Shown in pieces: positions 22,628 through 50,131 of a DNA stretch of 64,000 bases. The stretch spans positions 4,667 through 68,666 of the forward strand of contig JAHJTF010000020.1 of assembly GCA_018830045.1 (NCBI GenBank), written 5' to 3'. How positions within the stretch are numbered: the stretch's first letter is position 1; each line of letters opens with the position of its first letter. The DNA is from Patescibacteria group bacterium. GTDB lineage: Bacteria; Patescibacteriota; Microgenomatia; UBA1400; PJMF01. A program made the translations under genes and the position numbers. The notes below the pieces were generated by a model. It was not told where the DNA came from. It searched no databases and worked only from the letters and a program-made list of their open reading frames with translations.

Positions 22628-22730
22628 ATAACTCCTCTTATGTATTTAAATGTAGCCACTCAGGCGCAATAATATAGTATACCCTAAGTTGCAGATAATG
22701 GGTCTGATGAGAGATAATGGGGGTTCAACT

Positions 22731-25106
22731 ATGTTAAATTTAAACTGGCAGAAAGCTTTTTTGCATAAGTTGTCTAAAAAACAGCTATCCAAAAAAAAAC
22801 AACACTCGCAAAAATCTCCAGCGAAAAAATCTACTGCTCAGATTACCCGCATTGTTAAAACTTTGTTGTACCCAGTTACTCACCCTATTTTGCGCTATGT
22901 AACTGCAGTGGTATTTTCTCTGCTAATTATTGGGACTGGACTGCTTCTCCAACAACTTCCCTCTCCGCGGCGTCTGACTGCTAAAGATAATTTTGCTGTT
23001 AGTACCTTAATTTATGACCGTTACGGTAAATTATTATATGAAATTTATGCAGATGAGAATCGTGTTCCAATTAAACTAGAAGAACTTCCGCCCCATGTCT
23101 TACAAGCCACGGTTTCCATAGAAGATAAAAATTTTTATAAACATTGGGGGTTTGATGTAAGCGGAATTATCCGAGCCATACGCAATAATCTCCTGAGTAC
23201 GGACGTTGAGGGCGGATCAACCATTACTCAGCAATTAGTTAAAAATGCTTTTTTAACCAAAGAAAAAACTCTGCAACGAAAATTTAAAGAACTAGTTTTG
23301 GCCGTCCTAACAGAGATCATGTACTCCAAAAAAGAAATTCTAGAAATGTATTTAAACTACATTTCTTATGGCGGTACGGCAGTCGGGGTGGAAGCAGCAG
23401 CACATAAATACTTTGATAAAAATGCCAAAGATTTAAATCTTGCTGAAGCATCTTTATTGGCTGGATTACCCCAAGCCCCTAGTCGCTATTCACCTTTTGC
23501 TTCTGATCCTCAAATCTCACGAGATCGACAGGCAGAAGTGCTACGCAGAATGATTGAAGATGGCTACATTTCACAGCTGCAAGCACAAGAAGCTCAAGGA
23601 ACAATTCTAACCTTCGCACTGTCTGAAACTAATATTCAAGCACCTCACTTTGTATTTTATGTCCGAGATTTATTGTATGAAAAATACGGAGAAGAAATGG
23701 TCGAAAAAGGCGGACTAAGAGTTCATACCACCCTAGATTTAGACCTACAAAAGGCAGTCCAGGCATCAGTATCTGCAGAAGTTAAACAGCTAGCTCGCCA
23801 TCGAGTCAGCAATGGTGCCGCTCTAGTGACTAAACCTAATACTGGTGAAATTCTCGCCATGGTTGGAAGCACCGACTACTTTAATAGTGAAATTGATGGC
23901 CAGGTTAACATTGCATTGCGATCTCGCCAGCCAGGCTCTTCAATCAAACCTCTCATGTATGCCACTGCTTTTGAAGAGAAAAAACTAAATCCCGGGAGCA
24001 TTTTAATAGACATCCCCACGTGCTTTGATGTACCCGGTCAACCGCAATACTGTCCTAAAAATTATGATGGCACTTTCAAGGGTCCAGTTACTATCCGTCG
24101 CTCACTAGGCAACTCACTTAACATTCCAGCGGTAAAGGCAATTAGTACCATTGGCGTTGAAACTTTTATGGATCAAGCTACAAAGATGGGGATCACAACT
24201 TGGAAAGATCCGGCTAATTACGGCCTATCTCTAACTTTAGGGGGTGGTGAAGTGAGGATGATTGACATGGCCCAGGCATTTGGAGTTCTAGCCAATCAAG
24301 GAGTTAAAGTCCCACTCACTCCAATCCTAAAAATCGAAGATTATACTGGTGAAGTCTTAGCAGAAATCAATATTGAGGATCGCTTGGGAGACCTTAGCAC
24401 CCTGATGGAGTTTGACCAAGAATCAGCTGGTGATCTTAGGCGCGTCATGAACCGCGCCCCAGCCTATCTAGTTAGCCACATCATGCAAGATAACAATGCT
24501 CGCGTAGAAGCTTTTGGCCCTAGCTCAAAACTAGTTATTCCCGGAAAAATTGTCAGTGCCAAAACCGGCACCACTAATGACCTAAAAGACAACTGGACAA
24601 TTGGTTTTACACCACAGTACTTGGTTGTGAGTTGGGTAGGTAATAATGACAATACCCCCATGAACCCATACTTAGTTTCTGGAGTAACAGGAGCAGCCCC
24701 AATTTGGAATGACATCATGAATTTTATCTTACAAGGTCAAGAATCAGTTTGGCCACAAAAACCTAGTGACGTAGCTCAGGCCATGGTCTGCGCCAATGGA
24801 ATGCCGGCGCAATATGCAAATGAGGAATGTCGATTATTAAATCAAGAAATGTACTGGGAAGCTAGTTATCCCTCTAACTCTAGAGTAATTGAAAAAGAGG
24901 TTTGGATTAAACCAGAAACAGGCCTACCACCTGTTTACGGCGAACAAGCCGAGGGCTTAGTTCTAGAAAGACGCACTCTTTATCAAGACCCAGTGACCGA
25001 ACTTTACTGCGCCGACTGCCGCCGCAACTTAGATGAAACGGGTAAAATCCAATACGAACGACACGTAGTAAATGAACAAACCACTGCCCGCATCCATAAT
25101 GACTAA
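22731..25106 (+). CDS. Penicillin-binding protein 1A (bifunctional transglycosylase/transpeptidase), paralog 1
   Basis: GT51 motifs (EDKNFYKHWGFD, GGSTITQQL) and transpeptidase motifs (SSIKP, SLN, KTGTT). Start chosen at MLNLNW after a GGGGG RBS; the ORF extends to 22689. Confidence 0.85.
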   Translation: MLNLNWQKAFLHKLSKKQLSKKKQHSQKSPAKKSTAQITRIVKTLLYPVTHPILRYVTAVVFSLLIIGTGLLLQQLPSPRRLTAKDNFAVSTLIYDRYGKLLYEIYADENRVPIKLEELPPHVLQATVSIEDKNFYKHWGFDVSGIIRAIRNNLLSTDVEGGSTITQQLVKNAFLTKEKTLQRKFKELVLAVLTEIMYSKKEILEMYLNYISYGGTAVGVEAAAHKYFDKNAKDLNLAEASLLAGLPQAPSRYSPFASDPQISRDRQAEVLRRMIEDGYISQLQAQEAQGTILTFALSETNIQAPHFVFYVRDLLYEKYGEEMVEKGGLRVHTTLDLDLQKAVQASVSAEVKQLARHRVSNGAALVTKPNTGEILAMVGSTDYFNSEIDGQVNIALRSRQPGSSIKPLMYATAFEEKKLNPGSILIDIPTCFDVPGQPQYCPKNYDGTFKGPVTIRRSLGNSLNIPAVKAISTIGVETFMDQATKMGITTWKDPANYGLSLTLGGGEVRMIDMAQAFGVLANQGVKVPLTPILKIEDYTGEVLAEINIEDRLGDLSTLMEFDQESAGDLRRVMNRAPAYLVSHIMQDNNARVEAFGPSSKLVIPGKIVSAKTGTTNDLKDNWTIGFTPQYLVVSWVGNNDNTPMNPYLVSGVTGAAPIWNDIMNFILQGQESVWPQKPSDVAQAMVCANGMPAQYANEECRLLNQEMYWEASYPSNSRVIEKEVWIKPETGLPPVYGEQAEGLVLERRTLYQDPVTELYCADCRRNLDETGKIQYERHVVNEQTTARIHND

Positions 25107-26283
25107 GCGGATATTTTTAATCGCTGTAGGTTTATTAAGCTTTTTTCTGGCCTTAATTTTCTCTCTGTGGTATTTTGCCGAAGTTCCATTAACTTCCCCC
25201 CTTAGTTCACTAACTGCATTTAATTTTATTAATCAAATTACTTCTAAGAACAATAATAAGATTGTTTATGGATTCATCCCGTACTGGAATTTAGACGAGG
25301 TTAGGATTCAACCAGAATTAACCCACTTGGCTTACTTTGGGCTAACGATTGGCGCTGATGGACAAATCGTAACTAAAGAAAATAGCGGCCCAGAACCAGG
25401 CTATAAACATCTGCAAAGCGATAAGTTTTTGGAAATTTCAAGTCTGATGGAACAACAAAATAAAAAAGTAGAAATCGTGCTAACTCAGTTTAATAACGAC
25501 ACCATCGTCTCTTTATTAAACCAAGAAAAAAGCATTCAAAACCTGCTTACTTCACTTGATTCTATTTTATTGGCCTATCCAGTGAGTGGAATCAATTTAG
25601 ATATTGAATATACCGGTCTAGTGACTGACCAATTGCGCCAAAAATTTGTGCAGTTGGTGGTGGCAATTAGTCAACACTTAACCCAAAAATACGATCAAGT
25701 GACATTTTCAGTTGATATGTATGCTTCAGCCGCCACCAAACCTCAAATCTGGGATGTGGCTAAGATTGAGCCATATGTTGATCACATTATTGTCATGGCC
25801 TATGATTTTCATCAACGCTCTTCACCCCAAGCTGGACCAGTCGCACCTCTTTTTGGTGGACGAGAGTATTGGGACAGTGATGTTAATCAACATTTAGCAG
25901 ATTTTGTTAAACTAGTCCCAAAAGAGAAAATCCTCTTGGGAGTGCCATTTTATGGCTACGAGTGGCAGACTACCTCGCGTGATCCTCAGGCTCATACTTT
26001 TCCCCAAACGGGTAGTACAGCCAGCATAAAAAGAGTTAAAGAAATCATCGCCGTCACACAAGAACTTAAGGTAGAGCAATCCTGGAATGACCAAGCCCTC
26101 TCTCCCTATTTATCTTATCTTGAAGATGACAAAATTTTTGTGATTTACTATGAAAACTCTCGCTCTTTATCTTACAAACTAGACTATGTTAATCAATTAA
26201 ATTTGAGAGGAATTTCTATTTGGGCATTGGGTTATGAAGATAGCTCTCGCGAGTTGTGGGATGTGATCAGTAATAAATTATAG
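25099..26283 (+). CDS. Glycoside hydrolase family 18 (chitinase/YaaH-like) protein, membrane-anchored
   Basis: Motifs GINLDIEY (catalytic DxE), VMAYDFH and GVPFYGYEW, with an N-terminal TM. The start overlaps the PBP1A stop (ATGACTAA). Confidence 0.7.
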   Translation: MTKRIFLIAVGLLSFFLALIFSLWYFAEVPLTSPLSSLTAFNFINQITSKNNNKIVYGFIPYWNLDEVRIQPELTHLAYFGLTIGADGQIVTKENSGPEPGYKHLQSDKFLEISSLMEQQNKKVEIVLTQFNNDTIVSLLNQEKSIQNLLTSLDSILLAYPVSGINLDIEYTGLVTDQLRQKFVQLVVAISQHLTQKYDQVTFSVDMYASAATKPQIWDVAKIEPYVDHIIVMAYDFHQRSSPQAGPVAPLFGGREYWDSDVNQHLADFVKLVPKEKILLGVPFYGYEWQTTSRDPQAHTFPQTGSTASIKRVKEIIAVTQELKVEQSWNDQALSPYLSYLEDDKIFVIYYENSRSLSYKLDYVNQLNLRGISIWALGYEDSSRELWDVISNKL

Positions 26284-26350
26284 GCTTTTTTTCATCAACT
26301 TTTTACTGAGATAGGTTGTCTGATTAAAGAGCTGATGATATGATCGCCCC

Positions 26351-28642
26351 ATGAGTAAGATAAATCCTATAGCTTACGGAAATAGATTAAAGCTTATTCT
26401 AAAAAAACTAGGACCAATATATCTATTATTCCAATTTAGCCCCTTCGTAAGACCTAAAATAACATCTCCGCAGAAAAAAACATTGGGTAGTTCAGCTCTC
26501 CAGGGTTGGTCCATGATTGACCTCATGGAATTATTAAAATTGCCTCCAGTTAAATTTAAGAAAATTCAATTAACTCCCACACGAAAGACTGCTTTAATTG
26601 GTACGCTAATCATATTTCTGCTTGGTGGTGGATATAGTTTTTATTTATTAATTATTAAAGATTTGCCTAACATTAGTCAGCTTAATGGACGTAACCAAAT
26701 TGTTTCGACTAAAATCTTGTCGCGAGACGGACAAGTATTGTTTAGGATTTACGAAAATGAAAATCGCACTTTAGTCAAACTCAGTGATATTCCGCAACAC
26801 ATGATTAATGCCACCATCGCCATAGAAGATAAAGATTTTTATTATCATCATGGTTTTTCTATTAAAGGCATTATGCGCGCTCTAGTTGCCAACAGCCAAG
26901 ACCTGACTATTCAACAAGGCGGTTCAACTATCACTCAGCAATTGGTAAAAAATCGCTTACTTAGTCCAGAGCGAACAATTCAACGAAAAATCCGCGAGTT
27001 AGTCTTGTCTGTATTGATAGAACTTAAGTTTAGTAAAGAAGAAATTTTAGAGATGTACTTCAATCAAGTTCCCTATGGTGGTTCCACTTATGGCGTAGAA
27101 GAGGCAGCTCAGCGTTACTTTGGTAAAACTATTAGCCAATTAAATTTAGCAGAAAGCTCTATGCTAGCTGGTTTACCCGTGGCGCCATCTATTTATTCTC
27201 CTTTTGGCGCAGCGCCAGAACTGGCTAAGCACCGCCAGTTAGAGGTATTGCGCCACATGGTAGAAGATGACTATATTGATCAAGCTCAAGCTGATGATGC
27301 TTTCAAGTTGTCACTCAATTTTAAACACGATGTGATTGACATTAAAGCACCTCATTTTGTGTTTTATGTTAAAAAACTTCTCTCGGAACAATATGGCGAA
27401 GCTGTAGTTAATCAAGGTGGGTTGGAGGTCACTACTACCCTAGATTTAGAGTTGCAAAAAGTAGCCCAAAAAATTGTGACGGATGAGGTCACTAAACTCA
27501 CTAGACTGCAGGTGAATAATGGTGCGGCGTTAGTTACCAAACCACAAAGTGGCGAAATTTTGGCTATGATCGGCAGTAAAGATTACTTTGATTTTGAGCA
27601 TGATGGGCAGGTTAATGTCACTCTGCGACCGCGCCAACCTGGCTCCTCTATTAAGCCCTTAACTTACTCAATTGCCTTAGAGCAAGGTAAAAATCCCAGC
27701 ACTATTATTGACGATAGCCCCATTACCTACCATAGCTTAGGGAGTCCTCCTTACAGCCCACAAAACTATGATGGAAAATTTCATGGCAAAATCACGCTAC
27801 GAGAAGCTCTGGCTTCTTCTTATAACGTCCCAGCAGTGAAAACGTTAGCTGAAATTGGAGTTAGCAATATGCTAGATAAAGCCGAAACTATGGGCATAGA
27901 TACTTGGCAAGATCGACAAAGATTTGGCTTATCGCTCACTCTAGGAGGCGGAGAGGTCACCATGACAGATATGGCTGAGCTCTATAGTACTTTTGCCAAT
28001 GCTGGCACCACGGTAGAACTTAATCCCATTTTAGAAATTAAAAACTCTCAAGGCGAAATTTTATATCGCAATACCTGTGTGTTGGAAAATAGAGGGTGTC
28101 AACAAAACAAAACACTTAGTTCTAAGGTAGCATATCAAATTTCCGACATCCTCTCAGACAATCGCGCTCGCTTGGCTGCTTTTGGTCCGCACAGCGTTTT
28201 GTATATTCCTAATCAACAAGTGGCAGTTAAAACCGGTACTACCAATAGTCTCAGAGATAACTGGACTGTTGGTTATACGACTGATCGTTTAGTTGCTGTC
28301 TGGGTCGGCAATAATAATAATCAACCCATGAGCTATGTGGCCTCAGGCATTACTGGAGCCTCTCCAATTTGGAATCAAATCATGCGATTGCTTTTAGATG
28401 AAAAAACCCCCCATGTCTTTCCTCTCCCAGAAGGATTTATTAAAGTTAAAATTTGTGCCATCACTGGTACTCTTCCCTGCACGAGCTGTCCCAATATTAC
28501 TGAAGAGTTATTTATTCCGGGCAGTGAACCTCAAACACATTGTTCGCCTGAGTGGTTTGAGAAAAAAGAAGAACAACTGCAAAAAATGGAACAACTTCAG
28601 AAAAATCGCGATCAAATTTTAAACGGAGCTAGTGCTAATTGA
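26351..28642 (+). CDS. Penicillin-binding protein 1A, paralog 2
   Basis: Same motif set as paralog 1 (EDKDFYYHHGFS, GGSTITQQL, SSIKP, SYN, KTGTT). Confidence 0.85.
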   Translation: MSKINPIAYGNRLKLILKKLGPIYLLFQFSPFVRPKITSPQKKTLGSSALQGWSMIDLMELLKLPPVKFKKIQLTPTRKTALIGTLIIFLLGGGYSFYLLIIKDLPNISQLNGRNQIVSTKILSRDGQVLFRIYENENRTLVKLSDIPQHMINATIAIEDKDFYYHHGFSIKGIMRALVANSQDLTIQQGGSTITQQLVKNRLLSPERTIQRKIRELVLSVLIELKFSKEEILEMYFNQVPYGGSTYGVEEAAQRYFGKTISQLNLAESSMLAGLPVAPSIYSPFGAAPELAKHRQLEVLRHMVEDDYIDQAQADDAFKLSLNFKHDVIDIKAPHFVFYVKKLLSEQYGEAVVNQGGLEVTTTLDLELQKVAQKIVTDEVTKLTRLQVNNGAALVTKPQSGEILAMIGSKDYFDFEHDGQVNVTLRPRQPGSSIKPLTYSIALEQGKNPSTIIDDSPITYHSLGSPPYSPQNYDGKFHGKITLREALASSYNVPAVKTLAEIGVSNMLDKAETMGIDTWQDRQRFGLSLTLGGGEVTMTDMAELYSTFANAGTTVELNPILEIKNSQGEILYRNTCVLENRGCQQNKTLSSKVAYQISDILSDNRARLAAFGPHSVLYIPNQQVAVKTGTTNSLRDNWTVGYTTDRLVAVWVGNNNNQPMSYVASGITGASPIWNQIMRLLLDEKTPHVFPLPEGFIKVKICAITGTLPCTSCPNITEELFIPGSEPQTHCSPEWFEKKEEQLQKMEQLQKNRDQILNGASAN

Positions 28643-28660: not shown

Positions 28661-29365
28661 TTATTTATTTTTTATAGCCACTGCCTTAGCTTCAATTATG
28701 TCGACCACTTGCTTAATATGAAGATCGCTGGTATCAATTACAGTTGCATCTGGCACAATCTGCAGAGGATCAATGGCTCTTTCCATATCGCGCTTATCCC
28801 GCACCAGCATCTCGTCATAAACCTGTTGATAACTGGCATCATGACCCTTAGACTGCTCCTGAAGATGACGCCGTTTAGCTCTGACAGTCTCTGAGGCAGT
28901 CAAAAATATCTTGAGATCAGCGTCTGGCAAGACTTTAAAGGTGATATCCCTACCCTCCATCACTACATCATGACTAGCTGCTATTGCCTGCTGTTTGCTA
29001 ACTAATACTTTTCTTAACTGAGGATATTGAGCCACAATGGCTGAATTTTTACTCACCTCATCAGTCCTAATCTGCCAGGAGATGTCTTCGCTATCTAGTA
29101 AAACAGTGATTAAACGCCCATCTTGTTGCGACTCTGAGGGATTAAGTAACTCAATTTTTGCTTTTTCTACAATAGCTGCCACTTTGTCCTCATCATTTAG
29201 ATCAATGTTATTGCGTAGGGTCAATAAGGCAGCGGTGCGGTACATAGCTCCAGTATCGATATATAAAAAGCCCAGTCTCAGAGCGACCAATCTAGCGACC
29301 GTACTGCAACCAGCAGCAACGGGACCATCAATAGCGATTTGAAAAAATTTGGGCATTTTTATCAA
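28661..29365 (-). CDS. cmk: Cytidylate kinase
   Basis: IAIDGPVAAGCSTVARLVALRLGFLYIDTGAMYR. Confidence 0.8.
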   Translation of the reverse strand: MIKMPKFFQIAIDGPVAAGCSTVARLVALRLGFLYIDTGAMYRTAALLTLRNNIDLNDEDKVAAIVEKAKIELLNPSESQQDGRLITVLLDSEDISWQIRTDEVSKNSAIVAQYPQLRKVLVSKQQAIAASHDVVMEGRDITFKVLPDADLKIFLTASETVRAKRRHLQEQSKGHDASYQQVYDEMLVRDKRDMERAIDPLQIVPDATVIDTSDLHIKQVVDIIEAKAVAIKNK

Positions 29366-30081
29366 GCCTTTCTTTGAGTTGCTTCTAACATCTTAACTCG
29401 TTTTGAAATTTCATCCATCACTTGCTCAATACTTAAGTGAGTTGTATCTAACTGCCAAGCATCTAGAGTGGGGCGCAGGGGGTCAATCTCACGAGTCATT
29501 TCACGAGTATCTCTAGACACTATGTCTGCTTGAACTTGCTTTTTAGTGACTTTTTCACCTACCTGCTTGAGTTGTTTTTGTTTACGCTTAACTCGTTCTG
29601 CTTGATCGGCAATCATGAAAATTTTTAAATCAGCGTCCGGCAAAACCTTACTTCCAATATCTCTGCCTTCCATAACAATTCTTTTACCATCACACATATC
29701 TTGTTGGAGTTTAACTAAAATTTTTCTTACTTCTTTGTGAATGCCGATAATAGAAGCGCCTTCGCCGATCTCTAGCTCACGGATTTTCCAGGAAACATCT
29801 TCATTATTGAGATACACAGACACAGGGCGACCATCTTTTTTTTTGCCAGCTGGACGAGCTAGACGAATATCTATTTTAGCCGCCAATGTAGCCACAGCTG
29901 GACCATTATGCCAATCAATCTTATTTCTTTGAGCTGCCAAAGCCATGGCTCGGTACATGGCCCCAGTGTCGATGTAAGTCATCTTAAGCTGATCTGCCAA
30001 CTGTTTGGCGATGGTGCTTTTGCCCGAAGCAACCGGCCCATCAATAGCAATCTGAAAAGATAAATTAGGTCTTTTTGGCAT
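29362..30081 (-). CDS. cmk: Cytidylate kinase, second tandem paralog
   Basis: IAIDGPVASGKSTIAKQLADQLKMTYIDTGAMYRAMALAA. The stop overlaps the downstream cmk start. Confidence 0.8.
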   Translation of the reverse strand: MPKRPNLSFQIAIDGPVASGKSTIAKQLADQLKMTYIDTGAMYRAMALAAQRNKIDWHNGPAVATLAAKIDIRLARPAGKKKDGRPVSVYLNNEDVSWKIRELEIGEGASIIGIHKEVRKILVKLQQDMCDGKRIVMEGRDIGSKVLPDADLKIFMIADQAERVKRKQKQLKQVGEKVTKKQVQADIVSRDTREMTREIDPLRPTLDAWQLDTTHLSIEQVMDEISKRVKMLEATQRKA

Positions 30082-30368: not shown

Positions 30369-30622
30369 AAAAACTCCTTTTATTAACTAAATTAGCATGT
30401 AAATTAAACCTTTACACGCACACTTATATTAAAGAGGAAAAGGAGCCAGGGTGCAAGGACCCGTTTAGCAGGACCCTTAGCTCCATTACATTTTTAGATG
30501 AGTCAAAACGCCCTGTTGCAGTTTATGATGCATATATTACCCGAAGATATTTGCTATATGTGTGTATATATGATTATCTATTTATAGTGCAAACAACAAT
30601 AAGTTGATAGTTAGGAAAATTT

Positions 30623-33280
30623 ATGACAGAGAATAATGACACCATGAGTTTAAAAGACATGGGATTTACTGCAAGCGGAAAACTATCAGAAGGCCAAGGT
30701 CTTATTGGAGTAAGACAATTAGCAAAATCAATAGAAAAAGGAGATTTGGGTAGACTTGATGAAAGCGAGTATCGGGGTGGAGCTGGATTTGTCGATAATA
30801 TGTTGCGCATGACAAAGGCATTAATTGGTCGAGATACAGTTAGCCAGGAGGTGCGCGAATTCATTGGCTGGATCAGAAAAGATGGCGCTGAAGATTATAA
30901 GGCAAGGACCGAGGCCTTTTTGGAGTTGAATGGTCAGGAGCAAATTGAACGTATGGCTGGTGGAGATGAAAACATTAAAGGAGCTCTAGAAACTCTTTTT
31001 GCAACTCATCAGCGTGGACAAAGTGGAGATTTGGCTAATTTTAAAGATCTATTAGGAGATGTATGGCAAAAAGTTGAAGAGTGGAGACAAGGTCAATACG
31101 AAACAGATAGAGAGATGATTGATGAATATATGAAAGGTGCAGAAACTGCCAAAACTGAAACATTTCATTCTCTATGGGAAATGTGGGATCTGCAGGAGAA
31201 GAAAGATTTGGCTAATCGAACAGGCAATTATATTAGGAGCAGCGATCACAATAGAGTAATCAGCCCTGCTGGAGAGCATGGATCAAGGAGAAAGGCGTTA
31301 GAGGGCGGGAAAATACGCAGGGCTTGGGCATTAGTGAAAGGATTGCCTAGAGAATTAGGTGAACGAGGTAATGCCTTGGCAAGGGTTGAGGGTGTATCCG
31401 AAGCACGTAATTTAGCAATCCAAGGTGGGTTAAGTGAACTAAAACACGATGCGCTGAATCGAACACAAGATGGGAGTCTTGAGAGAGCTGAGATGTATGT
31501 ACGCGGAGTTATTACTAGAGATGAGCTCGGAACAGAGCCTCGTCACTGGAGCAGAACTTTAGATGATTTGACTACCAGGGAAGAAGAGCGTGTTAGTAGT
31601 GGTGGTAAAAAAAATACGCGTTATCTCAGGCGTATTGCAAAAATGCGAGCAGGCGGCGAAGTTAGGGGAGCAAACAATGGTGGAAAAATAGCATATTACG
31701 AAACGTTGTATACAAATATGGAGGCTAGCGCACATGCCACATACGATAGTAAAAAAGCAGAGTGGAGTAAGTACGCACTAAAGCCAGAAGGCGGATTTGC
31801 CGCTGGTTTAATGCCCGCACCACTCACTGAAGCGGCGATGAAACTATCCGCCTTGGGAATAGATGGGACATTAAAAATAGTAAAAGGTGTAGATGGCACT
31901 ATTGGATTGGCAATCGAATCGATGGATGGAGTAATGGCTGATTGGTCTCTTGGACGAATTGCTGAAGCTTGCGTGGGAAGAGAACTTGCTGGAGAAACAC
32001 ACCAAAACTCTAGAACCAGAGAAACAGCTCGAGCCTTGCGAGGTGCCGAAGCAGTTTGGCAAAGATCAGCCATGCTCGCTGGACGCACTGCAGACACTCT
32101 CGAATTTTCTCGTACCTCACCCGCCATATTGCACGTTCCTGGTGCTTTGATGATAGAAGGCGCAGACCTAGTATTAGGCGGAGTAAGTGTGGGAGAGAAA
32201 TCTGGACAAATCATGGAGTCACTAACCGCTAGAAATGAAAGATTATTAAGCGCACAAGCCTTAATGGTCCAAGAACGAAGCAACGTGAGGGGCAACGAGT
32301 ATCAAGACGCAAGAGACATGGTGGATCAAGAGATAAATGAAATTTTTGCAGACTTACCCGAACAGTTTGAAAATTGGGAAGCAATGAATGAGTGGAAAAA
32401 TAAAAAAGCTTTGGCTTTTGCTAAATTTGGCGGTTTAGCCATTCGACAGCGAATGTTGGATGCTATTGGGAAAATTACTGATCCAGACCAAATGCAGAGT
32501 GAGTGGGGGAAAATCTTGAATGCAGGGAGTGCGAGACGTACAAAATTAGAAGTGCTTGGTTTAGAAAGCCATGATGGCAGAAGAATCAACCGCACTGAAA
32601 GACAAGTCCCACTCTTAGATCAAATTATCATTGCGAAGAAGCGCATGGCTGAAGGAGATGAGGGGTTAGCATCACAAGAAATAGGTACTTCCACAGGCTA
32701 TGATAGCGTTCTCGAACATGCTACTTTAACGGAATTAACCCAAGCCCAAAAGAGGTGGTTGGAAATCCAAAAAAAGCGTATGGACAGAAGAAGTAAGTTA
32801 GATTCCATGTGGGAAAGCTTGCCGAAGGCGGCAGGCGCTACTGCTGGAGCATTTGCAGGCATGTTTGCCTTCCAGTTTTTAGGGAACCATTTTCATGAAG
32901 TTGTAGCTAAGCTGGGTATAGATTTGGGAGATGCCAACGAACAATTGCGGTATGCTCAAGAAGCCTTAAAAGCTGCTGGCGATCCTGCTAATTTTATTAG
33001 CCCAGAATTTGCGCCAACTCATCAGAGTTGGGCAGAAGCTGCAGGACAAGGTCAGGTTGGAGCTATACAAAACCAAGCAGTGGAGCTAGGCAAACAAATA
33101 TTGAAAGGCAAAGTGAGTGAAGTTATTTCACATGGGATGTCTATATTTTCTGGTTTAATTACACTGGCATCAACTGGTTTTGCAGGCATGAGACTAATGG
33201 GCGGGGCGGCTACACCATTTATTGGCGGCGGGGTTGCCAGAATGACTGGATTTGTCGAAGAACAACCAAAGATACAATAA
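30623..33280 (+). CDS. Large charged helical protein with C-terminal glycine-zipper hydrophobic segments (candidate membrane-active toxin/effector); no known family recognised
   Basis: 885 aa. It has no N-terminal signal peptide and is rich in E/R/K/A/G. The extreme C-terminus carries GxxxGxxxG-type segments (AAGATAGAFAGMFAFQFLG; GMSIFSGLITLASTGFAGMRLMGGAATPFIGGGVARMTGF). Its GC content is visibly higher than that of neighbouring genes. Confidence 0.5.
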   Translation: MTENNDTMSLKDMGFTASGKLSEGQGLIGVRQLAKSIEKGDLGRLDESEYRGGAGFVDNMLRMTKALIGRDTVSQEVREFIGWIRKDGAEDYKARTEAFLELNGQEQIERMAGGDENIKGALETLFATHQRGQSGDLANFKDLLGDVWQKVEEWRQGQYETDREMIDEYMKGAETAKTETFHSLWEMWDLQEKKDLANRTGNYIRSSDHNRVISPAGEHGSRRKALEGGKIRRAWALVKGLPRELGERGNALARVEGVSEARNLAIQGGLSELKHDALNRTQDGSLERAEMYVRGVITRDELGTEPRHWSRTLDDLTTREEERVSSGGKKNTRYLRRIAKMRAGGEVRGANNGGKIAYYETLYTNMEASAHATYDSKKAEWSKYALKPEGGFAAGLMPAPLTEAAMKLSALGIDGTLKIVKGVDGTIGLAIESMDGVMADWSLGRIAEACVGRELAGETHQNSRTRETARALRGAEAVWQRSAMLAGRTADTLEFSRTSPAILHVPGALMIEGADLVLGGVSVGEKSGQIMESLTARNERLLSAQALMVQERSNVRGNEYQDARDMVDQEINEIFADLPEQFENWEAMNEWKNKKALAFAKFGGLAIRQRMLDAIGKITDPDQMQSEWGKILNAGSARRTKLEVLGLESHDGRRINRTERQVPLLDQIIIAKKRMAEGDEGLASQEIGTSTGYDSVLEHATLTELTQAQKRWLEIQKKRMDRRSKLDSMWESLPKAAGATAGAFAGMFAFQFLGNHFHEVVAKLGIDLGDANEQLRYAQEALKAAGDPANFISPEFAPTHQSWAEAAGQGQVGAIQNQAVELGKQILKGKVSEVISHGMSIFSGLITLASTGFAGMRLMGGAATPFIGGGVARMTGFVEEQPKIQ

Positions 33281-33290
33281 AAGGAGAACT

Positions 33291-33659
33291 ATGACCAATA
33301 AATCAGATTTTTTAGATGCCTTACGATTACTCGTAGGACGCGCTGAGCTAGAAGATAGTGAAAGGGAACGAATGTTAGCTTTATTAACAGAAGGCCAGTT
33401 TGGTACGATAGAGCTTGATGAGTTAAACAAAATTGCAAGCATTGTTGAATCAGAAAAAGCCAATCTTGAAAGAGAGATTCTAGAGTCAAGTGACCCAGAT
33501 TTGATTAACGAAATGAGCGATACTGTAGAGGCACTTGAGCAAATAGAATATGACTCCGCCACCAAAACTTTTGAAGAATTAAGCGCTAGCGATAATTTAA
33601 ATAGTGCAAAAAATATATCTGGTCAATCACTGCTTGATAAATTTGCTGGCATCCAGTAA
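33291..33659 (+). CDS. Small highly acidic protein (candidate immunity/chaperone partner)
   Basis: Start at MTNKSDFLDAL, preceded by an AAGGAG RBS 10 bp after the large ORF's stop. 123 aa with a very high D/E content. Confidence 0.45.
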   Translation: MTNKSDFLDALRLLVGRAELEDSERERMLALLTEGQFGTIELDELNKIASIVESEKANLEREILESSDPDLINEMSDTVEALEQIEYDSATKTFEELSASDNLNSAKNISGQSLLDKFAGIQ

Positions 33660-33670
33660 AACGCATCTTA

Positions 33671-34177: not shown

Positions 34178-36322
34178 CTAGATACTCATGGCATACACAA
34201 TCGAACCACTCACCGCAAAAACTTTTTTCAGTTCCTCACTCACAAACAGGGTGGTTGTTGAAGCTAACGAATCACTTTTAATCTCTTTTAAAAATTCACC
34301 TTTTTTTGTCAGTATCACTAGTCTTTTTCCAGCTGGCTCCAAAAGATATAAATTCTCTAGATCTTCGCTGGTTGTAATTTGCAGATTTTGTGAAAAAGGC
34401 TCAGCCAACCCAACAATCTTGAACTCTTGCTCCCGGCCAGAAGCTAGTTTATGCAGTCCGCCTTCACGAGTGGTCACCCAAACATCACCATCAATAGCCC
34501 AGGAAGAAGCTTGATGATAATCAAAACTAACCGCCCCACTCATCCAGCCAATAGGATCAGAATAACCTTTTTCTTGTTTAGCATAACGATAGATATTTCT
34601 CTTTTCAGGATTAAGCACATAGATATAAGTAGCAAAACTTTCTAGCAAAATCGCAGTCTTATTAGAATCTCCCTCGGCAATAATTGCAGACAGAACACTA
34701 TTCTCATTCCCTAAATCCTTTTGAAAAATTCCTTGACCCAAAACAGTGAGAGTTTGATCAGTTATTTTTAAATCTATTAAGCGTTTCGCTATAGACAGAT
34801 CAATTGCACTAACCTGCTTTTTCTCTAGATCTAAAACAATGGCTTGTTTTCTATCAGCATCTAATAACACCACCTGTTTGCTAGTTGCATCGACACTACT
34901 TGCCACAAACTCGCCGTCAACTAATCTTAAATCATAAAAAATTTCCAGTTGGCCAAACTCTTCTTGCCCTGAAATCTGATCAAACAACTCGCGGGCGGTT
35001 GTAAGCTGATCACTCACGAGTGTCTTGGCTTGTTTTTGATCTTTAAAATCTTGTTCTAGCTGTATAAGTTGGATAATTGCTTGACTCACAGTTTCTCTAG
35101 CTAAAATTGGATCTGTAGTAACCTGATTTTTGGCTAAGACTATTTGCGCAGTAATCGGAGTTAAAACGGCATTGGCGGCTTTGACTTGTTTCCTGATTTT
35201 CAAAGTCATAAAGCCAATCAAACTCACCATAACAATAATTCCTGCCACAATTGGTAAAACTACTCTGATGAGATGACGTGGGGATTGAGGTTTGAGATAA
35301 ATATCTTTAGCAATTAGTCTTCGCACTAACACTACCGTTGCTTGGGCAGTCTTAATCATTAAATTTTTAAGTCTAGATAATATTTGCACCAATTTAATTA
35401 AAAACTGCTGCCAGTGGATACTTTTCACCAAAAAAGCTATTTTCCCAGACAAACTATTGATTTTTTGCCATACTTTACAAAATACAATCAGCGCCGGATA
35501 AGGGGGCTTTATTTGACCAAGTTTAGATAAATCTTGCTCTGATAGCGATAGGGGTGCAGTATTTTGAGTGTGAAGAATAGATCCATCGGCATTACGATTC
35601 TTACCCGCCCCTCTTAAACGTAGGGCTGGAGGAATATCTAGGAGTTGTTCCTCTTTAACGCCTACCTCTACCTCCTTTATTTCCTCTACCTCCTTTATTT
35701 TCTCTACCTCCTCCACCACCCCTATCTCATCGGGTACTATCTCAATATCTTCTTTAAACTCTCGCCCGCCTGTGACAAAAGCAATACTAGATAAAGAAGA
35801 GTCGTCTAAACCATGCAAGCCCGGAATAATTGAGGTCACCACGCTGTCAGTATCAAAACCACTGATAAATTTTTGCTCGATTTCATTTAAAAAATCGCTC
35901 GCTTGAGCTGTAGCTAAAACTACTATGTCCCCGGCTTTGCGCTTCCCTTCAATAATTTTTAGATCGTCAAGAGAGCTTAATAATATACCTGTTCTATTAC
36001 TACGTTTTAAAAATACACTCCCACCCGACACACCCAAAATAATTCGGTTTGCTTTGAAAACCCCGCAGACTAACGTGAGGGTGACATCAAACTGCTCTAT
36101 CTCTTTAATCAACCCAGCCATGAATTTGTGGAGCTCCTGTGAAGACCTGGCTTGAGCTTGTGAAATTTGTTCAGTTAAATCTCGGCCGACGTTGCCAGCA
36201 TGATCACCAGAAATAGAAAAAGCGCACACTAACTGACCAGAAGAATGATAGCTTGAAGCCACCTGAGACCAACCACTAAATTGTGGTAAGCCTACGACGG
36301 GAGTAACGTCGACTTTATACAT
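34178..36322 (-). CDS. Large hypothetical membrane protein (N-terminal globular domain, EV/KE repeat linker, single TM, C-terminal beta-rich domain)
   Basis: 714 aa with a VEEVEKIKEVEEIKEVEV repeat and a TM segment (VVLPIVAGIIVMVSLIGFMTL). Confidence 0.4.
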   Translation of the reverse strand: MYKVDVTPVVGLPQFSGWSQVASSYHSSGQLVCAFSISGDHAGNVGRDLTEQISQAQARSSQELHKFMAGLIKEIEQFDVTLTLVCGVFKANRIILGVSGGSVFLKRSNRTGILLSSLDDLKIIEGKRKAGDIVVLATAQASDFLNEIEQKFISGFDTDSVVTSIIPGLHGLDDSSLSSIAFVTGGREFKEDIEIVPDEIGVVEEVEKIKEVEEIKEVEVGVKEEQLLDIPPALRLRGAGKNRNADGSILHTQNTAPLSLSEQDLSKLGQIKPPYPALIVFCKVWQKINSLSGKIAFLVKSIHWQQFLIKLVQILSRLKNLMIKTAQATVVLVRRLIAKDIYLKPQSPRHLIRVVLPIVAGIIVMVSLIGFMTLKIRKQVKAANAVLTPITAQIVLAKNQVTTDPILARETVSQAIIQLIQLEQDFKDQKQAKTLVSDQLTTARELFDQISGQEEFGQLEIFYDLRLVDGEFVASSVDATSKQVVLLDADRKQAIVLDLEKKQVSAIDLSIAKRLIDLKITDQTLTVLGQGIFQKDLGNENSVLSAIIAEGDSNKTAILLESFATYIYVLNPEKRNIYRYAKQEKGYSDPIGWMSGAVSFDYHQASSWAIDGDVWVTTREGGLHKLASGREQEFKIVGLAEPFSQNLQITTSEDLENLYLLEPAGKRLVILTKKGEFLKEIKSDSLASTTTLFVSEELKKVFAVSGSIVYAMSI

Positions 36323-45265: not shown

Positions 45266-47998
45266 TCATTGGAACAAATGCTCCCAGTCCTCTCTTGGAA
45301 GAATTTGTTCCATTATTCGAGTAACTACTTCGGCTTTTTCCAAAAGATCATTTTCTAATAAGTTCTGAACTACTGATTGCAAATAAACAATCAATTCCAT
45401 CCTGGGTTCATAGGCAATAGCTGGTATTTGATTAGTAAGCAGGGAGTATTTAAAAGCCCGATCGTAATTCTGTTCACTTATTAGTTTTTTAATTAAAGTC
45501 ACAAAAACTTGAGTGCGCTCCTCTGTTTTCCAACCAATTTTTTCCCATGACCAATCAAAAGTAGCATCAATATAAACAGTTAAATTAACTGTAGATATCT
45601 TATTTTGATCAATTACCTCAAACCACTGCGGTTCTTCATTTAAAATCCAGGGAACTAGTTCTTGCGCCAGCTGATAACTCTGGATGGTCTTTGGCATCTC
45701 AGTTATCGCCAAATGGTTGCCTACCTCAACTAAGTACTGAGCTGTTTTCAGCTGGGGGTTGAAGTGAAGCGAAAACTCACTCTTATCAGACAAAAACTGC
45801 CAGACTTTGAAAATAGCTTCCAGATTCTCAAAAGCTTGACTATACTCATTTCGTTCTAAATTAATTTGAACTTGAGCTAAGGCCGTTTGGGAGAGAGTTT
45901 CCCAAATATCTCTACTCCGCCAATCGGTTAACTCAGCCAACCACTTTGCGTAGTGGGGAAATTTTAATAATTCGTCCTTTGATTTTACTGCGACCAAGGC
46001 ATTTAGGAAAGCTTGTGAATACACTTCGCGATATTGACCAAAGTATTCGCCGGGAATCTCCGCAAGAGAAACAAAAAAAACTATTTCCTGATCGGGAGAT
46101 AGATGATGCTGTAAAAATATGGGTGGATGCTTGTGTAAAATCCACTCATCTTCAAATCGAGCCCGGGCATACCACTTGGCTGTTTCTGCCGGTTGATTAG
46201 CCTGATAAAACAAATCGGCTAGCTTTAGCATTTGCTGTGTTAATTCAATTTTCTTGTTATAGCTAATCTTATAAAATCCTGATTTTTCTATCTGTCGCCA
46301 AACTGCCAAGGTTTTATTAATTTGCACAACAGCCTGCTCTAACTCTGCTTTCTCTAGGTAATAGCTAACTACATCTTGAGTCGCTCTATTCCCCGGTTGT
46401 AACTCTAACCAGTTTTCTCTTAAACGCTGCTGAATATTTTGGTCACTAATGGAACTAATATATGATTGGTAGATATCTGGATGATATTGATAGATTTGAA
46501 AAAATTTTTCTTTTTGCTGGTCTAATATAGTAGGTGACATTTCATATATTTTACGATGCCAATGAAAATAAGGAAAAATATTAAAAGCTTGGCCAACTTT
46601 ACCATTAGCTATGAATGACTCAATAATCAAATAAATTACTGCCAAACTGATTAGCAGCAGTAATGCTCCGTAATAAGTAGCTTTGAACAAAAGCTCTATA
46701 ATTTTATCATTTCTTTTTAAAATCAATGGAAAAAAATTTTCTGACCTAATAACAAGAGCAGCTAAAATCATAGTTAATGCCAATAAACCAGTAAAACTCC
46801 AATCAAAGTCAAAAATAACATTTAAATAAATGCCTATTAAACTAAGGGCGATTGCTTTTTGCCAAGTCAGCTTTTTTTTATCTGATTTGAAAGCTAAATG
46901 AATGACTTTAATTAATAAAACTCCCATTAATAAAAGAAATCCACTTCCACCGACCACTCCTAACTCAGCAAACATTTGTAAATAAGCATTATGTGCATAG
47001 CTAGTTGCTTCTAGTGGCATAATTTGATATTTTTTAGATGTTATTCCAAACGTTCCAGGGCCTGCTCCCAGCAACGGAAACTCTTTCGCAACCATGAAAG
47101 CCTGATGCCAGTACCAGAGCCGCACTTCTGTCCCCAAAGATTTACATAGTTGTTTCTTAAACAGTGGCGTCGGACAAAAAAAGTTATCTTTAATAATCGG
47201 GGTAATTGAAAAAAATATTTGGGTAGCGAAAGTCAACAAAAAAAGACTTACTAAAATTAGTAAAACTTTTTTAATTAAAGAATCTAACGGTTTTTTGTGT
47301 TGGAAAAAAATTAATATTAAAAAAATTAATTGCAGAAATCCAATTGAAACTGCTGTCCGACCAAAACTTAATAATAACGATAAACTGAAGATAACTGTCA
47401 AGGCCAATCGTCCATAATTATGCGAAGAATTAGAATTTTTATCTAAAGCCCACCACCAACTCAAAGGAATTACTAGTAATAAAAGTGCTGCTAGGTGATT
47501 ATGACCATAGGTAGCATGCAATAAATTCATTCCCGGTAACATCTCGGCCCAACTAGGAATTAAGAAAAAGCCAACACTAATAATTGTTGCCACTATGCCC
47601 AACAGTAGCAAGGTGCTAATTATCAGTTGAGGGAAAATTAATTTTTCATGCAAAACCACAAACCAAAACACCACAAATACCATCAGCCAACTGCTAGTGG
47701 CATCAAAAGTTAGGGGCCAGCTAATAGTTGAAATAGCTGCTAAGCCAAAAAACACCAAAAAACAAAACCAACTGACTGCAACTAGACGATAATGATGTAA
47801 TTTGGACCACTGTATTCTTCGACTGTAAAGCAATAAGAACAAACTCATCACACCCGATACCAAGTAACTCAAGTATGATTGACTCAATAATAATAAAAAT
47901 AATAAAGAACACAACCAACCAAGTATAAAAATTAAATATCGATTATCTTGTCTCACATATATATGATAACATTTATCAAGATGCTGATTTTCCAACAA
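45266..47998 (-). CDS. O-antigen ligase/polymerase-family (Wzy_C-like) polytopic membrane protein with a long C-terminal soluble helical domain
   Basis: 910 aa; the N-terminal ~450 aa are multi-TM with a Wzy_C-like loop. Called by family resemblance. Confidence 0.4.
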   Translation of the reverse strand: MLENQHLDKCYHIYVRQDNRYLIFILGWLCSLLFLLLLSQSYLSYLVSGVMSLFLLLYSRRIQWSKLHHYRLVAVSWFCFLVFFGLAAISTISWPLTFDATSSWLMVFVVFWFVVLHEKLIFPQLIISTLLLLGIVATIISVGFFLIPSWAEMLPGMNLLHATYGHNHLAALLLLVIPLSWWWALDKNSNSSHNYGRLALTVIFSLSLLLSFGRTAVSIGFLQLIFLILIFFQHKKPLDSLIKKVLLILVSLFLLTFATQIFFSITPIIKDNFFCPTPLFKKQLCKSLGTEVRLWYWHQAFMVAKEFPLLGAGPGTFGITSKKYQIMPLEATSYAHNAYLQMFAELGVVGGSGFLLLMGVLLIKVIHLAFKSDKKKLTWQKAIALSLIGIYLNVIFDFDWSFTGLLALTMILAALVIRSENFFPLILKRNDKIIELLFKATYYGALLLLISLAVIYLIIESFIANGKVGQAFNIFPYFHWHRKIYEMSPTILDQQKEKFFQIYQYHPDIYQSYISSISDQNIQQRLRENWLELQPGNRATQDVVSYYLEKAELEQAVVQINKTLAVWRQIEKSGFYKISYNKKIELTQQMLKLADLFYQANQPAETAKWYARARFEDEWILHKHPPIFLQHHLSPDQEIVFFVSLAEIPGEYFGQYREVYSQAFLNALVAVKSKDELLKFPHYAKWLAELTDWRSRDIWETLSQTALAQVQINLERNEYSQAFENLEAIFKVWQFLSDKSEFSLHFNPQLKTAQYLVEVGNHLAITEMPKTIQSYQLAQELVPWILNEEPQWFEVIDQNKISTVNLTVYIDATFDWSWEKIGWKTEERTQVFVTLIKKLISEQNYDRAFKYSLLTNQIPAIAYEPRMELIVYLQSVVQNLLENDLLEKAEVVTRIMEQILPREDWEHLFQ

Positions 47999-48212
47999 TT
48001 TAATAAATTTAAAGATAAAATTCAGGATACGTTTCTACAAATTTTATCAGTGTTTAGTTTAGCCGTGACTTATTTGTTGGGAGTGGGATTGACTCGCTTA
48101 ATATCAGTATTTGTTGATAAAAAATTTTTGCCCCCTGCTTCCACGAGCTCTCAGTGGCAGACAACAAAGTACTCAGATAAAGTTAATAATAGTTTATACT
48201 AAAACAATTTCT

Positions 48213-49970
48213 ATGATGAAAGTTCTGGGTATTTCTTGTTTTTATCATGACTCAGCCGCTTGTTTAACGTTGGATGGAAACATTATTGCTGCCGCTGCTG
48301 AAGAAAGGTTCAGTAGAAAAAAGCATGATAATGGTTTTCCAAAGTTAGCGATAGAATACTGTTTACAAACAGCTGGATTGGCAATTAATGAACTAGACGC
48401 CATTGCTTTTTATGAAAAGCCCATCTGGAAATTTGAAAGAATTTTGCACCAACACCTGGAACACTTTCCTAAAAGCTATCGGGCTTTTTTTGATACCACT
48501 GGCTCTTGGATCAACCAAAAATTAAACATTAAAAAAATTCTTCAAGAAACACTAAATTACTCTGGAGAAATTATTTTTTTACCCCATCATCTATCTCATG
48601 CGGCTAGTGCCTATTATTTATCGCCTTTTGATAAATCAGTCTTAGTCACTATTGACGGAGTAGGTGAATGGGCCACCACTACTATTGGTACAGCTAGTAA
48701 AGAGCAGCTCAAAATTGATCAAGAGATTCGTTTTCCTCACTCGCTAGGATTACTTTACAGCACCCTAACAGCTTACCTTGGATTTAAAGTCAATAACGAC
48801 GAATACAAAGTCATGGGATTAGCAGCTTATGGAAACCCAGATGAATACCAACCTGCTTTTGACAAATTAATCACTGTACATAAAGACGGTAGCTATGCTC
48901 TCGATATGTCTTACTTTGATTATGCTTGGGCTCAACGCATGCCGGCAAAAAAAATGGTGGCTTTGTTTGGTCACCCCATCAGAAAACCTGAAAGCAGAAT
49001 CTATCAGTACCATCAAAACATCGCAGCCACACTTCAAAACAAATTAGAAAAAGTGATTTTTAATTTACTCCAGGCAGCTCATAACAAATACCGCACTGAT
49101 AATCTCTGTCTATCGGGAGGTGTAGCTCTTAACTCTGTTATGAATGGTCGAATCCTGTCTCAAACATCATTTAAAAAAATCTTTATTCCTCCAGACCCGG
49201 GAGATGCCGGCGGAGCTATGGGGTCTGCTTTATATGTGACTTTAAACCCAGAGGTAATTCGAGGCTATGCAAACCGACATACAAAACACCTAAAAATCAA
49301 ACATAAAAAAATAGCTAAAAACTTCACTCCTTATTTAGGACCGGGTTATGCGTGGCATCAAATTGAATCAACTTTACAAAAAAATAAAAACCGTCTCAAA
49401 TACAAATATTTCTCTGATCAAGACAAATTATTAGATTTAATCTCTGACTTAATTATTAAGAAACATGTTATTGGTTGGTTCCAGGGTAGAATGGAGTGGG
49501 GTCCTAGAGCACTGGGAAATCGTAGTATCTTGGCTACTGCTACTGATCCTAAGATGAAAGATATTTTAAATGCTAAGGTTAAACATCGAGAAATGTTCCG
49601 TCCATTTGCTCCAGTGATATTAGAAGAATACGTTCCAAATTTTTTCAAGGCAGACCAGCCTTTGCCATCAATAAGTAAATATATGTTGATGGTTTATCCA
49701 TTTACAGAAAAAGGTAAAAAGGATATCTCGTCTGTAGTACATGTTGATAATACGGGCAGGTTGCAAAGCGTGAGTAGAAAAGATAACCCTCTTTATTATT
49801 CTCTAATTGAACGTTATTACCAAAAAACCGGCGTTCCAGTAATCATCAACACTTCTTTTAATATCCGCGGCGAACCAATTGTTTGCAGCCCTCAAGATGC
49901 GATCAATTGCTTTTTAGGAACTGACATTGATTATCTAGTAATCGACCAGTTTTTTGTCAGTAAAAAGTAA
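48213..49970 (+). CDS. Carbamoyltransferase (NodU/CmcH family)
   Basis: Start at MMKVLGISCFYHDSAACL…AAEERFSRKKHD…, the N-terminal signature of the NodU/CmcH family. The ORF extends to 48111. Confidence 0.65.
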   Translation: MMKVLGISCFYHDSAACLTLDGNIIAAAAEERFSRKKHDNGFPKLAIEYCLQTAGLAINELDAIAFYEKPIWKFERILHQHLEHFPKSYRAFFDTTGSWINQKLNIKKILQETLNYSGEIIFLPHHLSHAASAYYLSPFDKSVLVTIDGVGEWATTTIGTASKEQLKIDQEIRFPHSLGLLYSTLTAYLGFKVNNDEYKVMGLAAYGNPDEYQPAFDKLITVHKDGSYALDMSYFDYAWAQRMPAKKMVALFGHPIRKPESRIYQYHQNIAATLQNKLEKVIFNLLQAAHNKYRTDNLCLSGGVALNSVMNGRILSQTSFKKIFIPPDPGDAGGAMGSALYVTLNPEVIRGYANRHTKHLKIKHKKIAKNFTPYLGPGYAWHQIESTLQKNKNRLKYKYFSDQDKLLDLISDLIIKKHVIGWFQGRMEWGPRALGNRSILATATDPKMKDILNAKVKHREMFRPFAPVILEEYVPNFFKADQPLPSISKYMLMVYPFTEKGKKDISSVVHVDNTGRLQSVSRKDNPLYYSLIERYYQKTGVPVIINTSFNIRGEPIVCSPQDAINCFLGTDIDYLVIDQFFVSKK

Positions 49971-50131
49971 ATTAGAAAGTAAATATGCTAAAAGAACTTT
50001 TGGAGTACTTATGGAAAAATAAGGCTTGGTGGATCGCTCCACCAATTATCATTTTCACTATTTTTGGGGCTTTAATCATTTTTTCTAGTACCTCGCCAGT
50101 AAGTTCGTTTGTGTATATGATGTTTTAGTTA

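Follow-up and report, generated by a model that had tools for sequence, protein, structure and literature searches.

Within a window of 64,000 nucleotides from a Patescibacteria group bacterium (assembly GCA_018830045.1, contig JAHJTF010000020.1, positions 4,667 to 68,666 of the forward strand; coordinates below are positions in this stretch), two adjacent genes on the plus strand make up a compact cassette belonging to an orphan family. The large gene (30623..33280) encodes an all-alpha protein of 885 amino acids and the small gene (33291..33659) an acidic protein of 122 amino acids. Between the TAA stop codon of the former (33278-33280) and the ATG of the latter at 33291 lies an intercistronic spacer of 10 nt (33281..33290, plus strand), which carries the ribosome-binding site AAGGAG at 33281-33286. 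On the minus strand 5' of the pair is a gene for a 79-amino-acid LiaI/LiaF-type membrane protein (LiaI-LiaF-like_TM1, E = 2.9e-10), and the convergent 3' neighbor is smpB, whose stop codon is separated from that of the small gene by a junction of 11 nt (33660..33670). An earlier note made from the DNA sequence alone, here called the original prediction, had described this operon of two open reading frames (ORFs) with its spacer and AAGGAG, the divergent small membrane protein gene upstream, and smpB downstream, and re-derivation of the coordinates gave the same layout. It had also claimed a strongly acidic second protein of 123 amino acids; the acidity stands (net charge -17, with 28 Asp and Glu against 11 Lys and Arg), while the length comes to 122. 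NCBI annotates both products as hypothetical proteins.

The large protein is rich in Gly (11.0%), Ala (11.0%), Glu (9.3%), and Arg (7.5%). Its N-terminus is hydrophilic and, judged by eye, without a Sec-type hydrophobic core, in agreement with the predicted absence of a signal peptide. A prepilin-like reading of the N-terminal 'KDMG|FT' was rejected, since no hydrophobic helix comes after it and it is not kept across the wider family. Two antisense ORFs on the minus strand, at 31696-32295 and 33194-33565 (199 and 123 amino acids), lie inside both cassette genes. They appear conserved at homologous loci and shadow the sense frame, and they are most likely artefacts of sense-frame composition rather than genes.

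An orphan family and its C-terminal architecture

Relatives of the large protein are very few. Among 5.8 billion proteins, a word-indexed search picked out five in total, one of them 99.7% identical to the window protein and the other four 48-66% identical, and a repeat of this search with a 15-sequence profile returned the same five proteins only. Searching 1.84 billion cluster representatives exhaustively with a profile gave 15 matches, 10 of which are full-length (789-926 amino acids) and only about 20-25% identical; across the family the length ranges from 789 to 971 amino acids. The profile of the small protein likewise matched only 21 clusters among the 5.8 billion proteins. The small proteins are mutually homologous, with net charges of -9 to -19. 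One host is named by an NCBI record, in which a fragment of the 66%-identical relative is assigned to Candidatus Collierbacteria.

Twelve columns are invariant in the alignment of the large protein (G69, L125, A176, Q191, P398, R473, G474, G635, S636, R723, L726, and D727). This alignment contains no conserved Walker A motif and no catalytic-looking or Asp/His/Glu constellation. An SMC-like or ATPase coiled coil was accordingly rejected: Walker A is absent in 12 of the 15 members, and the matches in the other 3 are chance ones that do not all fall at aligned positions. In the small protein the invariant motifs are D68-P69-D70-x-I72 and a C-terminal G111..L114-L115...A119-G120, which across the family takes the form G..(W)LL..(F/Y)AG, and by inspection none of the partner sequences contains a long hydrophobic stretch. 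For one distant member (P0007 / L013), the best match to the window subfamily falls in the C-terminal third (profile positions 642-916); for the remaining distant members it falls in the N-terminal two-thirds. This pattern suggests either a mosaic origin or uneven evolutionary rates along the protein.

Searches for known domains returned nothing for either protein. None of the 15 large-protein members has a Pfam match at E <= 0.1, and neither the window proteins nor the family members match NCBIfam or PHROG. The small protein has no Pfam match, DNA-binding domains and TPR included, and the PDB, searched by single sequence and by profile, gave nothing for either protein. An AlphaFold model of the large protein built from the 15-sequence alignment reached a predicted local distance difference test score (pLDDT) of 60.8 and a predicted template modeling score of 0.58; it was used in place of a model from a 5-sequence alignment, which gave a pLDDT of only 37. 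Apart from one small beta hairpin at 416-432 the model is nearly all helix, the longest helices reaching 50 residues. It has several confidently predicted blocks, but in the hydrophobic tail (733-787 and 800-874) its confidence is low. A Foldseek-type structure search with this model found no fold neighbor. The match to MukB had only E = 0.57 and a TM-score of 0.06, and the top BFVD matches, which are minor tail or tape-measure proteins, were not significant (best E = 0.009, TM-score <0.1). The pair is thus an orphan by sequence as well as by predicted fold. Rfam gave no RNA family in the region, its single match being to RyhB at 24 bits against a gathering threshold of 55.

The close subfamily was also searched for in collections of mobile elements, with no relative in IMG/VR, in 50,697 GenBank phage records, or among the PLSDB plasmids, and a scan of GTDB species-representative genomes with motifs of the window subfamily found none. 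These results bear out the original prediction that the large protein has no known domain (Pfam, NCBIfam, PHROG, PADLOC, and PDB are all without a match) and that the locus, like the other neighborhoods of the pair, has no phage or conjugation context. The prediction had named a tape-measure, SMC-like, or cytoskeletal protein as routine alternatives, and no such assignment emerged from the structure and homology searches.

All 15 members of the large-protein family have a common layout at the C-terminus. A first hydrophobic segment, H1 (residues 736-758, AAGATAGAFAGMFAFQFLGNHFH, encoded at 32828..32896 on the plus strand), comes after the invariant R723..L726-D727 motif and has an equivalent in 15 of 15 members, where it is a stretch of about 20 Ala/Gly/Ser-rich residues following a net-basic stretch. 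A second segment, H2 (residues 834-859, 33122..33199, plus strand), is followed by a tail of about 26 amino acids ending in ARMTGFVEEQPKIQ. The loop between the two is 52-91 amino acids long, net acidic, and helical in 15 of 15 members, and the tail after H2 (20-56 residues) is net basic in most of them and neutral in the subfamily of the window. In most of the 15 members, the charges of these parts fit the positive-inside rule for a hairpin with both ends on the inside and the loop outside. The maxima on the Kyte-Doolittle scale are 1.07-1.93 for H1 and 1.0-1.8 for H2 across the 15 members, and 1.25-1.3 for the two segments of the window protein, which is marginal for transmembrane helices. 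By the charge pattern, a terminal hairpin, probably a membrane anchor, would follow a cytoplasmic body of about 730 residues. Of the two glycine-zipper segments originally described, the conserved segment pair stands, as does one zipper: the sole strict GxxxGxxxG of the hydrophobic tail is GATAGAFAG from residue 738, within H1. H2 is Gly/Ser/Thr/Ala-rich without a canonical zipper, both segments are marginal and of low model confidence, and the other members have small-xxx-small patterns in their hydrophobic segments rather than strict zippers.

The GC content of the large gene is modestly raised (0.444 versus 0.388 for the window), while that of the small gene, at 0.371, is under the window average, so that the GC-elevated cassette of the original prediction holds for its first gene only. 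The cassette as a whole lies at the 98.5th percentile of 3-kb windows in GC and, as expected from that prediction, deviates in tetranucleotide composition as well. By codon position, the GC content of the large gene is 0.553 (first), 0.440 (second), and 0.337 (third, GC3). Its distance in relative synonymous codon usage is 0.059, mid-range among 22 long genes, and its GC3 is also like that of its neighbors. Since the GC excess is confined to the first 2 codon positions while GC3 and codon usage are host-like, it reflects amino acid composition rather than foreign DNA. The tetranucleotide outlier status follows from the same amino acid content, and we therefore rejected composition as a sign of foreign origin.

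Pairing, empty sites, and allelic divergence

Wherever the contig extends far enough, the small gene lies 3' of the large gene on the same strand at a distance of 7-21 nt, including in members that are only about 20-25% identical, and it is 122-136 codons long across the family. The original prediction had made conservation of the acidic gene beside homologs of the large gene a point to be checked, and this synteny extends to the distant subfamilies. A third gene conserved across contexts was looked for and rejected, as none is kept beside the pair.

At least 9 different contexts harbor the pair, which is found in both orientations. It lies between yceG and rpoB (L001-3), between infB and rpsO (L012), between a methyltransferase and a glycosyltransferase gene (L015), and between a GlsB-like gene and a gene for an unknown protein of 453 amino acids (L006/7). 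In two hosts it comes after a Mur ligase gene and SOD, directly in L005 and with a Fic gene in between in L027. The interval from rplA to rplJ is occupied by the pair in three hosts. In L025/26 the pair, rplJ, and rplL read in the same direction in that order; in L028/29 the region holds rplA, a kinase gene, the pair, a 162-amino-acid gene, and rplJ; and in L004 the cassette, inverted relative to L025, lies between rplJ-rplL and rplA-rplK, which both read against it. The homology of the rplJ promoter and leader among these three hosts breaks exactly at the cassette edge. Insertions fall within 6-11 nt of neighboring stop codons in the intervals between rplA and rplJ, yceG and rpoB, infB and rpsO, and the liaF-like gene and smpB. 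Some neighbors look accessory themselves. The Fic-domain gene of L027 (3326-4411) stands beside the pair, as do a Ser/Thr kinase gene and genes for three unknown proteins between rplA and rplJ in L028 (2045-6225), which suggests that these intergenic sites act as small variable islands.

Empty sites are found in close relatives. Scanning species-representative genomes with the SmpB of the window identified three (L016, L017, and L019) with SmpB proteins 84-86% identical to it. In all three, about 70 nt lie between the smpB stop codon and the start of the LiaF-TM gene, versus the 3.2-kb cassette in the window. L017 and L019 retain the order of the window beyond this point (cmk, cmk, PBP, GH18, PBP), and the contig of L016 stops just past the LiaF-TM gene start. 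Similarity to the empty sites ends at 30450-30458 (GGTGCAAGG). This break, together with the position of the small gene 11 nt from the smpB stop codon, places the insert at about 30460-33670, its upstream non-coding part (30460..30622, plus strand) including a promoter-like region of its own. The cassette is an insertion/deletion polymorphism at an orthologous site. A repeat scan and inspection gave no convincing flanking inverted or direct repeats or target-site duplication at the edges of the insert, and no integrase, transposase, or terminal repeats occur with the pair. The left junction (30441-30480) shows AGGACCC...AGGACCC as a short direct repeat, along with GGGT..ACCC, which may form a small stem; these may be what is left of the smpB terminator, or a trace of the insertion event.

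Upstream of the large gene, an element of about 75 nt (30527..30600, plus strand) can be aligned to the sequence upstream of the pair in L007 and L001. Within it are TTGCTA (30551-30556), a run rich in A and T, and the palindrome CTATTTATAG (30578-30587). Because the element is shared with L001 and L007 despite different flanking genes, the promoter-like region appears to travel with the cassette, and a promoter or operator role for 30527-30600 seems plausible from this conservation. On the plus strand of the element, no canonical sigma-70 site was identified by a consensus scan. The palindrome lies about 35 nt before the start of the large gene, its arms CTAT..ATAG kept in L001 and L007 and its center variable, and it could be an autoregulation operator.

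Alleles at shared loci have diverged far more than their hosts. Between L005 and L027 the SOD proteins are 90% and the Mur ligases 68% identical, while the large proteins are 23.5% and the small proteins 37% identical. Between L025 and L028 the ribosomal proteins L10 and L12 are 91.5% and 90% identical, while the small proteins are 39% identical and the large proteins belong to different subfamilies. In these comparisons, the large and small partners diverge together. Changes among close strains are skewed toward non-synonymous ones. L011 differs from L007 by 14 non-synonymous and 0 synonymous changes, and L006 from L007 by 10 and 3, with a ratio of non-synonymous to synonymous rates (dN/dS) of 0.95. 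Compared with L008, the window has 5 changes in its large gene and a single one in its small gene, and the four flanking genes (5.6 kb) have only 3 changes, all synonymous. Among 13 full-length variants of one 90% cluster there are 22 variable positions, several of them at intermediate frequency or with three alleles. The changes are few and come from metagenome assemblies, so that diversifying selection is suggestive rather than proven.

Several other loci of the window stand outside the insert. Upstream, two tandem cmk paralogs on the minus strand (28661-29365 and 29362-30081) have overlapping stop and start codons; since the duplication is also present in L017 and L019, it is an old one that does not belong to the cassette. 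Beyond them, at 22689-28642, a GH18 gene is flanked by two genes for class A PBPs (transglycosylase plus transpeptidase) and is syntenic in relatives. Adjoining smpB, a minus-strand gene at 34178-36322 encodes a protein of 714 amino acids that lacks any Pfam match and has a hydrophobic segment at its center as well as an acidic EVEKIKEVEEIKEVE repeat. Both the lowest GC (0.30-0.34) and the strongest tetranucleotide outlier of the window are found at 50132-53107 (with 45266-49970), where three tandem GDSL-like lipase/acylhydrolase paralogs are adjoined by genes for a Wzy_C O-antigen-ligase-like protein and a carbamoyltransferase. The region 45266-53107 is probably a variable surface-polysaccharide cluster.

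Candidate functions of the pair

We regard the pair as a self-contained accessory operon of a few Patescibacteria lineages (Microgenomates/Collierbacteria-like). Strict pairing, a promoter-like region of its own, rarity, divergent and co-varying alleles, an excess of non-synonymous change, the terminal hairpin, and the acidic partner lead us to favor, tentatively, an exchangeable conflict module, in which a membrane-acting effector and its cognate acidic neutralizer would act in the producer cell. We consider this possible rather than likely. The first roughly 730 residues of the large protein, which has no export signal, would form a cytoplasmic all-alpha body of novel fold, and the two Ala/Gly-rich helices of the last roughly 150 residues a hairpin inserted, or drivable, into the producer's own membrane. 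The co-translated product of the second gene, as a cognate, highly acidic helical protein, would bind the large protein and keep it inactive or soluble. If this partner were lost or displaced, or if a trigger were sensed by the large body, the hairpin would perturb the membrane, in a mechanism of the abortive-infection or toxin-antidote type. The original prediction of a toxin/immunity-type pair fits in that presence or absence between close relatives and deep allelic divergence agree with a conflict module; it fits less well in that an acidic soluble partner would be unusual as immunity to a pore former.

A more specific version of the conflict module is somewhat unlikely: a Patescibacteria-restricted immune or addiction system, consisting of a novel-fold, membrane-anchored sensor-effector and its neutralizer, and carried as a promoter-bearing, recombinase-free cassette at intergenic hot spots (between rplA and rplJ, and at smpB, rpoB, and rpsO).

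Several observations weigh against a conflict module. The neighbors of the pair are mostly housekeeping genes with no classical defense island, the conflict-like ones being Fic (L027) and the Ser/Thr kinase (L028). No PADLOC model matches the pair: PADLOC-DB v2, searched with 3 large proteins and the small protein, gave nothing significant, with a best E of 0.031 and no stretch over the threshold. The marginal hydrophobicity of H1 and H2 in the window protein, combined with a pLDDT of 25-45, means that these segments might not be transmembrane. The dN/dS counts are small, and consensus errors in the metagenomes could contribute to them. Instead of selection, an exchange of places between two old paralogous lineages could account for the deep divergence seen at shared loci. 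Finally, cysteine makes up 0.06% of residues family-wide versus 0.70% in neighboring proteins, which hints at an exported protein.

The strongest competitor, though still a doubtful one, is a lineage-specific structural or scaffold protein, tail-anchored and with an acidic subunit, that would serve envelope organization, division, or host attachment of these epibionts. Its fast evolution would then come from weak constraint on a long coiled or helical protein. The all-alpha model, whose helices reach 50 residues, the lack of an enzymatic motif, the anchor-like C-terminal hairpin, the housekeeping neighbors with recurrence between rplA and rplJ in three hosts, and the fully host-like codon usage are all consistent with such a role. 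It is harder to reconcile with the absence of the pair from the orthologous site in three close relatives and its extreme rarity overall, with large-protein alleles that are only 23% identical at the same locus while the SOD of their hosts is 90% identical, a divergence much greater than that of the flanking genes, and with the co-divergence of the small partner and the non-synonymous excess between near-identical strains.

We think it unlikely that the large protein is an exported or contact-delivered pore-forming toxin directed against a host bacterium or competitors, with the acidic protein as immunity factor or export chaperone. The order of effector gene then partner gene, the GxxxGxxxG within a conserved hydrophobic helix pair, the polymorphic and co-varying alleles, and the depletion of cysteine (about 12-fold, as in many exported proteins) would agree with this. 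A precedent for a glycine-zipper effector is the type VII secretion (T7SS) LXG protein TelE, whose C-terminus is reported to mediate the formation of membrane pores (doi 10.64898/2026.03.12.711312). The large protein of the pair, however, has no signal peptide and no LXG, PAAR, Rhs, VENN, or other delivery domain, and among the Pfam matches of the genes called in about 10 contexts there were no T7SS core, WXG100, or other secretion-system genes beside the pair. Divergence also runs along the whole length of the protein, with no switch at a C-terminal toxin module. Immunity proteins against pore-forming toxins are usually integral membrane proteins, unlike the partner here, which has no hydrophobic segment.

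Two further explanations have little in their favor. It is very improbable that the pair is a selfish, homing-like cassette that copies itself into intergenic sites beside conserved genes, by analogy with the free-standing homing-endonuclease genes of phages: the tight insertions between conserved genes, the empty sites in relatives, and the lack of an integrase, transposase, or terminal repeats would fit, but the protein shows neither a nuclease nor a recombinase motif and lacks a conserved Asp/His/Glu constellation, a predicted membrane hairpin is hard to square with DNA cleavage, and the presence of divergent alleles at one locus points to ordinary recombination via the conserved flanks. 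Least plausible of all is a remnant of a prophage tail module with a tape-measure- or ejection-like protein and its chaperone, which the long, helical, Gly/Ala-rich sequence with hydrophobic segments and the non-significant BFVD tail matches might recall, but for which all 15 members lack a PHROG or Pfam match, IMG/VR and the GenBank phage records hold no relative, no context has a phage gene nearby, and the isolated pair stays intact across deep divergence.

Comparison with known systems and significance

None of the tests of membership in named families that we ran was positive, and we therefore assign the pair to none of them. LXG toxins such as TelE resemble it in being large and helical, in lacking a Sec signal, and in having a Gly-rich C-terminal region, small helical partners, and polymorphic alleles. 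They differ in that the pair has no LXG domain and no T7SS genes nearby and diverges beyond the C-terminus, and in that it has one downstream acidic partner where LXG systems have upstream Lap-type partners and a separate immunity protein. Hydrophobic translocators of type III secretion systems (T3SS; IpaB/YopB class) pair with small acidic class II chaperones, and they share with the pair the lack of a Sec signal, a helical body, two hydrophobic segments, and a small acidic partner that would act as a solubilizer. Here Pfam does not identify the partner as a TPR protein, the two genes stand in the opposite order, and there is no sequence or fold match; no T3SS is known in Patescibacteria. Pore-forming colicins likewise have a large then a small gene and a C-terminal hydrophobic helix pair, but the pair has no colicin domain, its helices are split by the 52-91-amino-acid loop rather than forming a tight hairpin, and its soluble acidic partner (-9 to -19) contrasts with colicin immunity, which is a membrane protein. 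Tape-measure proteins are similar in length, helicity, Gly/Ala richness, and hydrophobic segments, and differ in that the pair has no PHROG or Pfam match, phage neighborhood, or relative in phage collections. A type II toxin-antitoxin system was rejected, as the large protein has 789-971 amino acids and the acidic small protein no DNA-binding Pfam domain (HTH, RHH, AbrB).

The nearest parallels are with defense systems. Effectors with a terminal pair of transmembrane helices (2TM effectors) occur in the CBASS, Pycsar, and retron abortive-infection systems. LdgA and Dallas are orphan defense genes restricted to Patescibacteria, without detectable homology, that were recovered experimentally (PMC12366544). 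The pair shares with 2TM abortive-infection effectors and with LdgA and Dallas a patchy accessory distribution, presence or absence between relatives, strongly divergent alleles, a hydrophobic two-helix module at one terminus, and an occurrence confined to Patescibacteria without known homologs, the comparison with LdgA and Dallas being by description only and not by sequence (PMC12366544). It differs in having no PADLOC match and no recognizable sensor or enzymatic domain. The accessory distribution typical of defense systems was found here (empty sites, and divergent alleles at the SOD and rplJ loci), although this is a generic trait that is insufficient for membership.

Much of bacterial diversity is accounted for by Patescibacteria, and this orphan pair carries comparative marks of a conflict module. 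Few defense or conflict systems have been identified in the group (PMC12366544). Unknown proteins are common in such genomes, and the comparative signatures make this pair a concrete and cheap experimental target; its compact size of 3.2 kb and its own promoter-like region allow it to be tested directly in E. coli. If active, it would represent a new membrane-acting effector fold with a new type of partner, and it would show how accessory genes move in tiny genomes without obvious mobile-element machinery.

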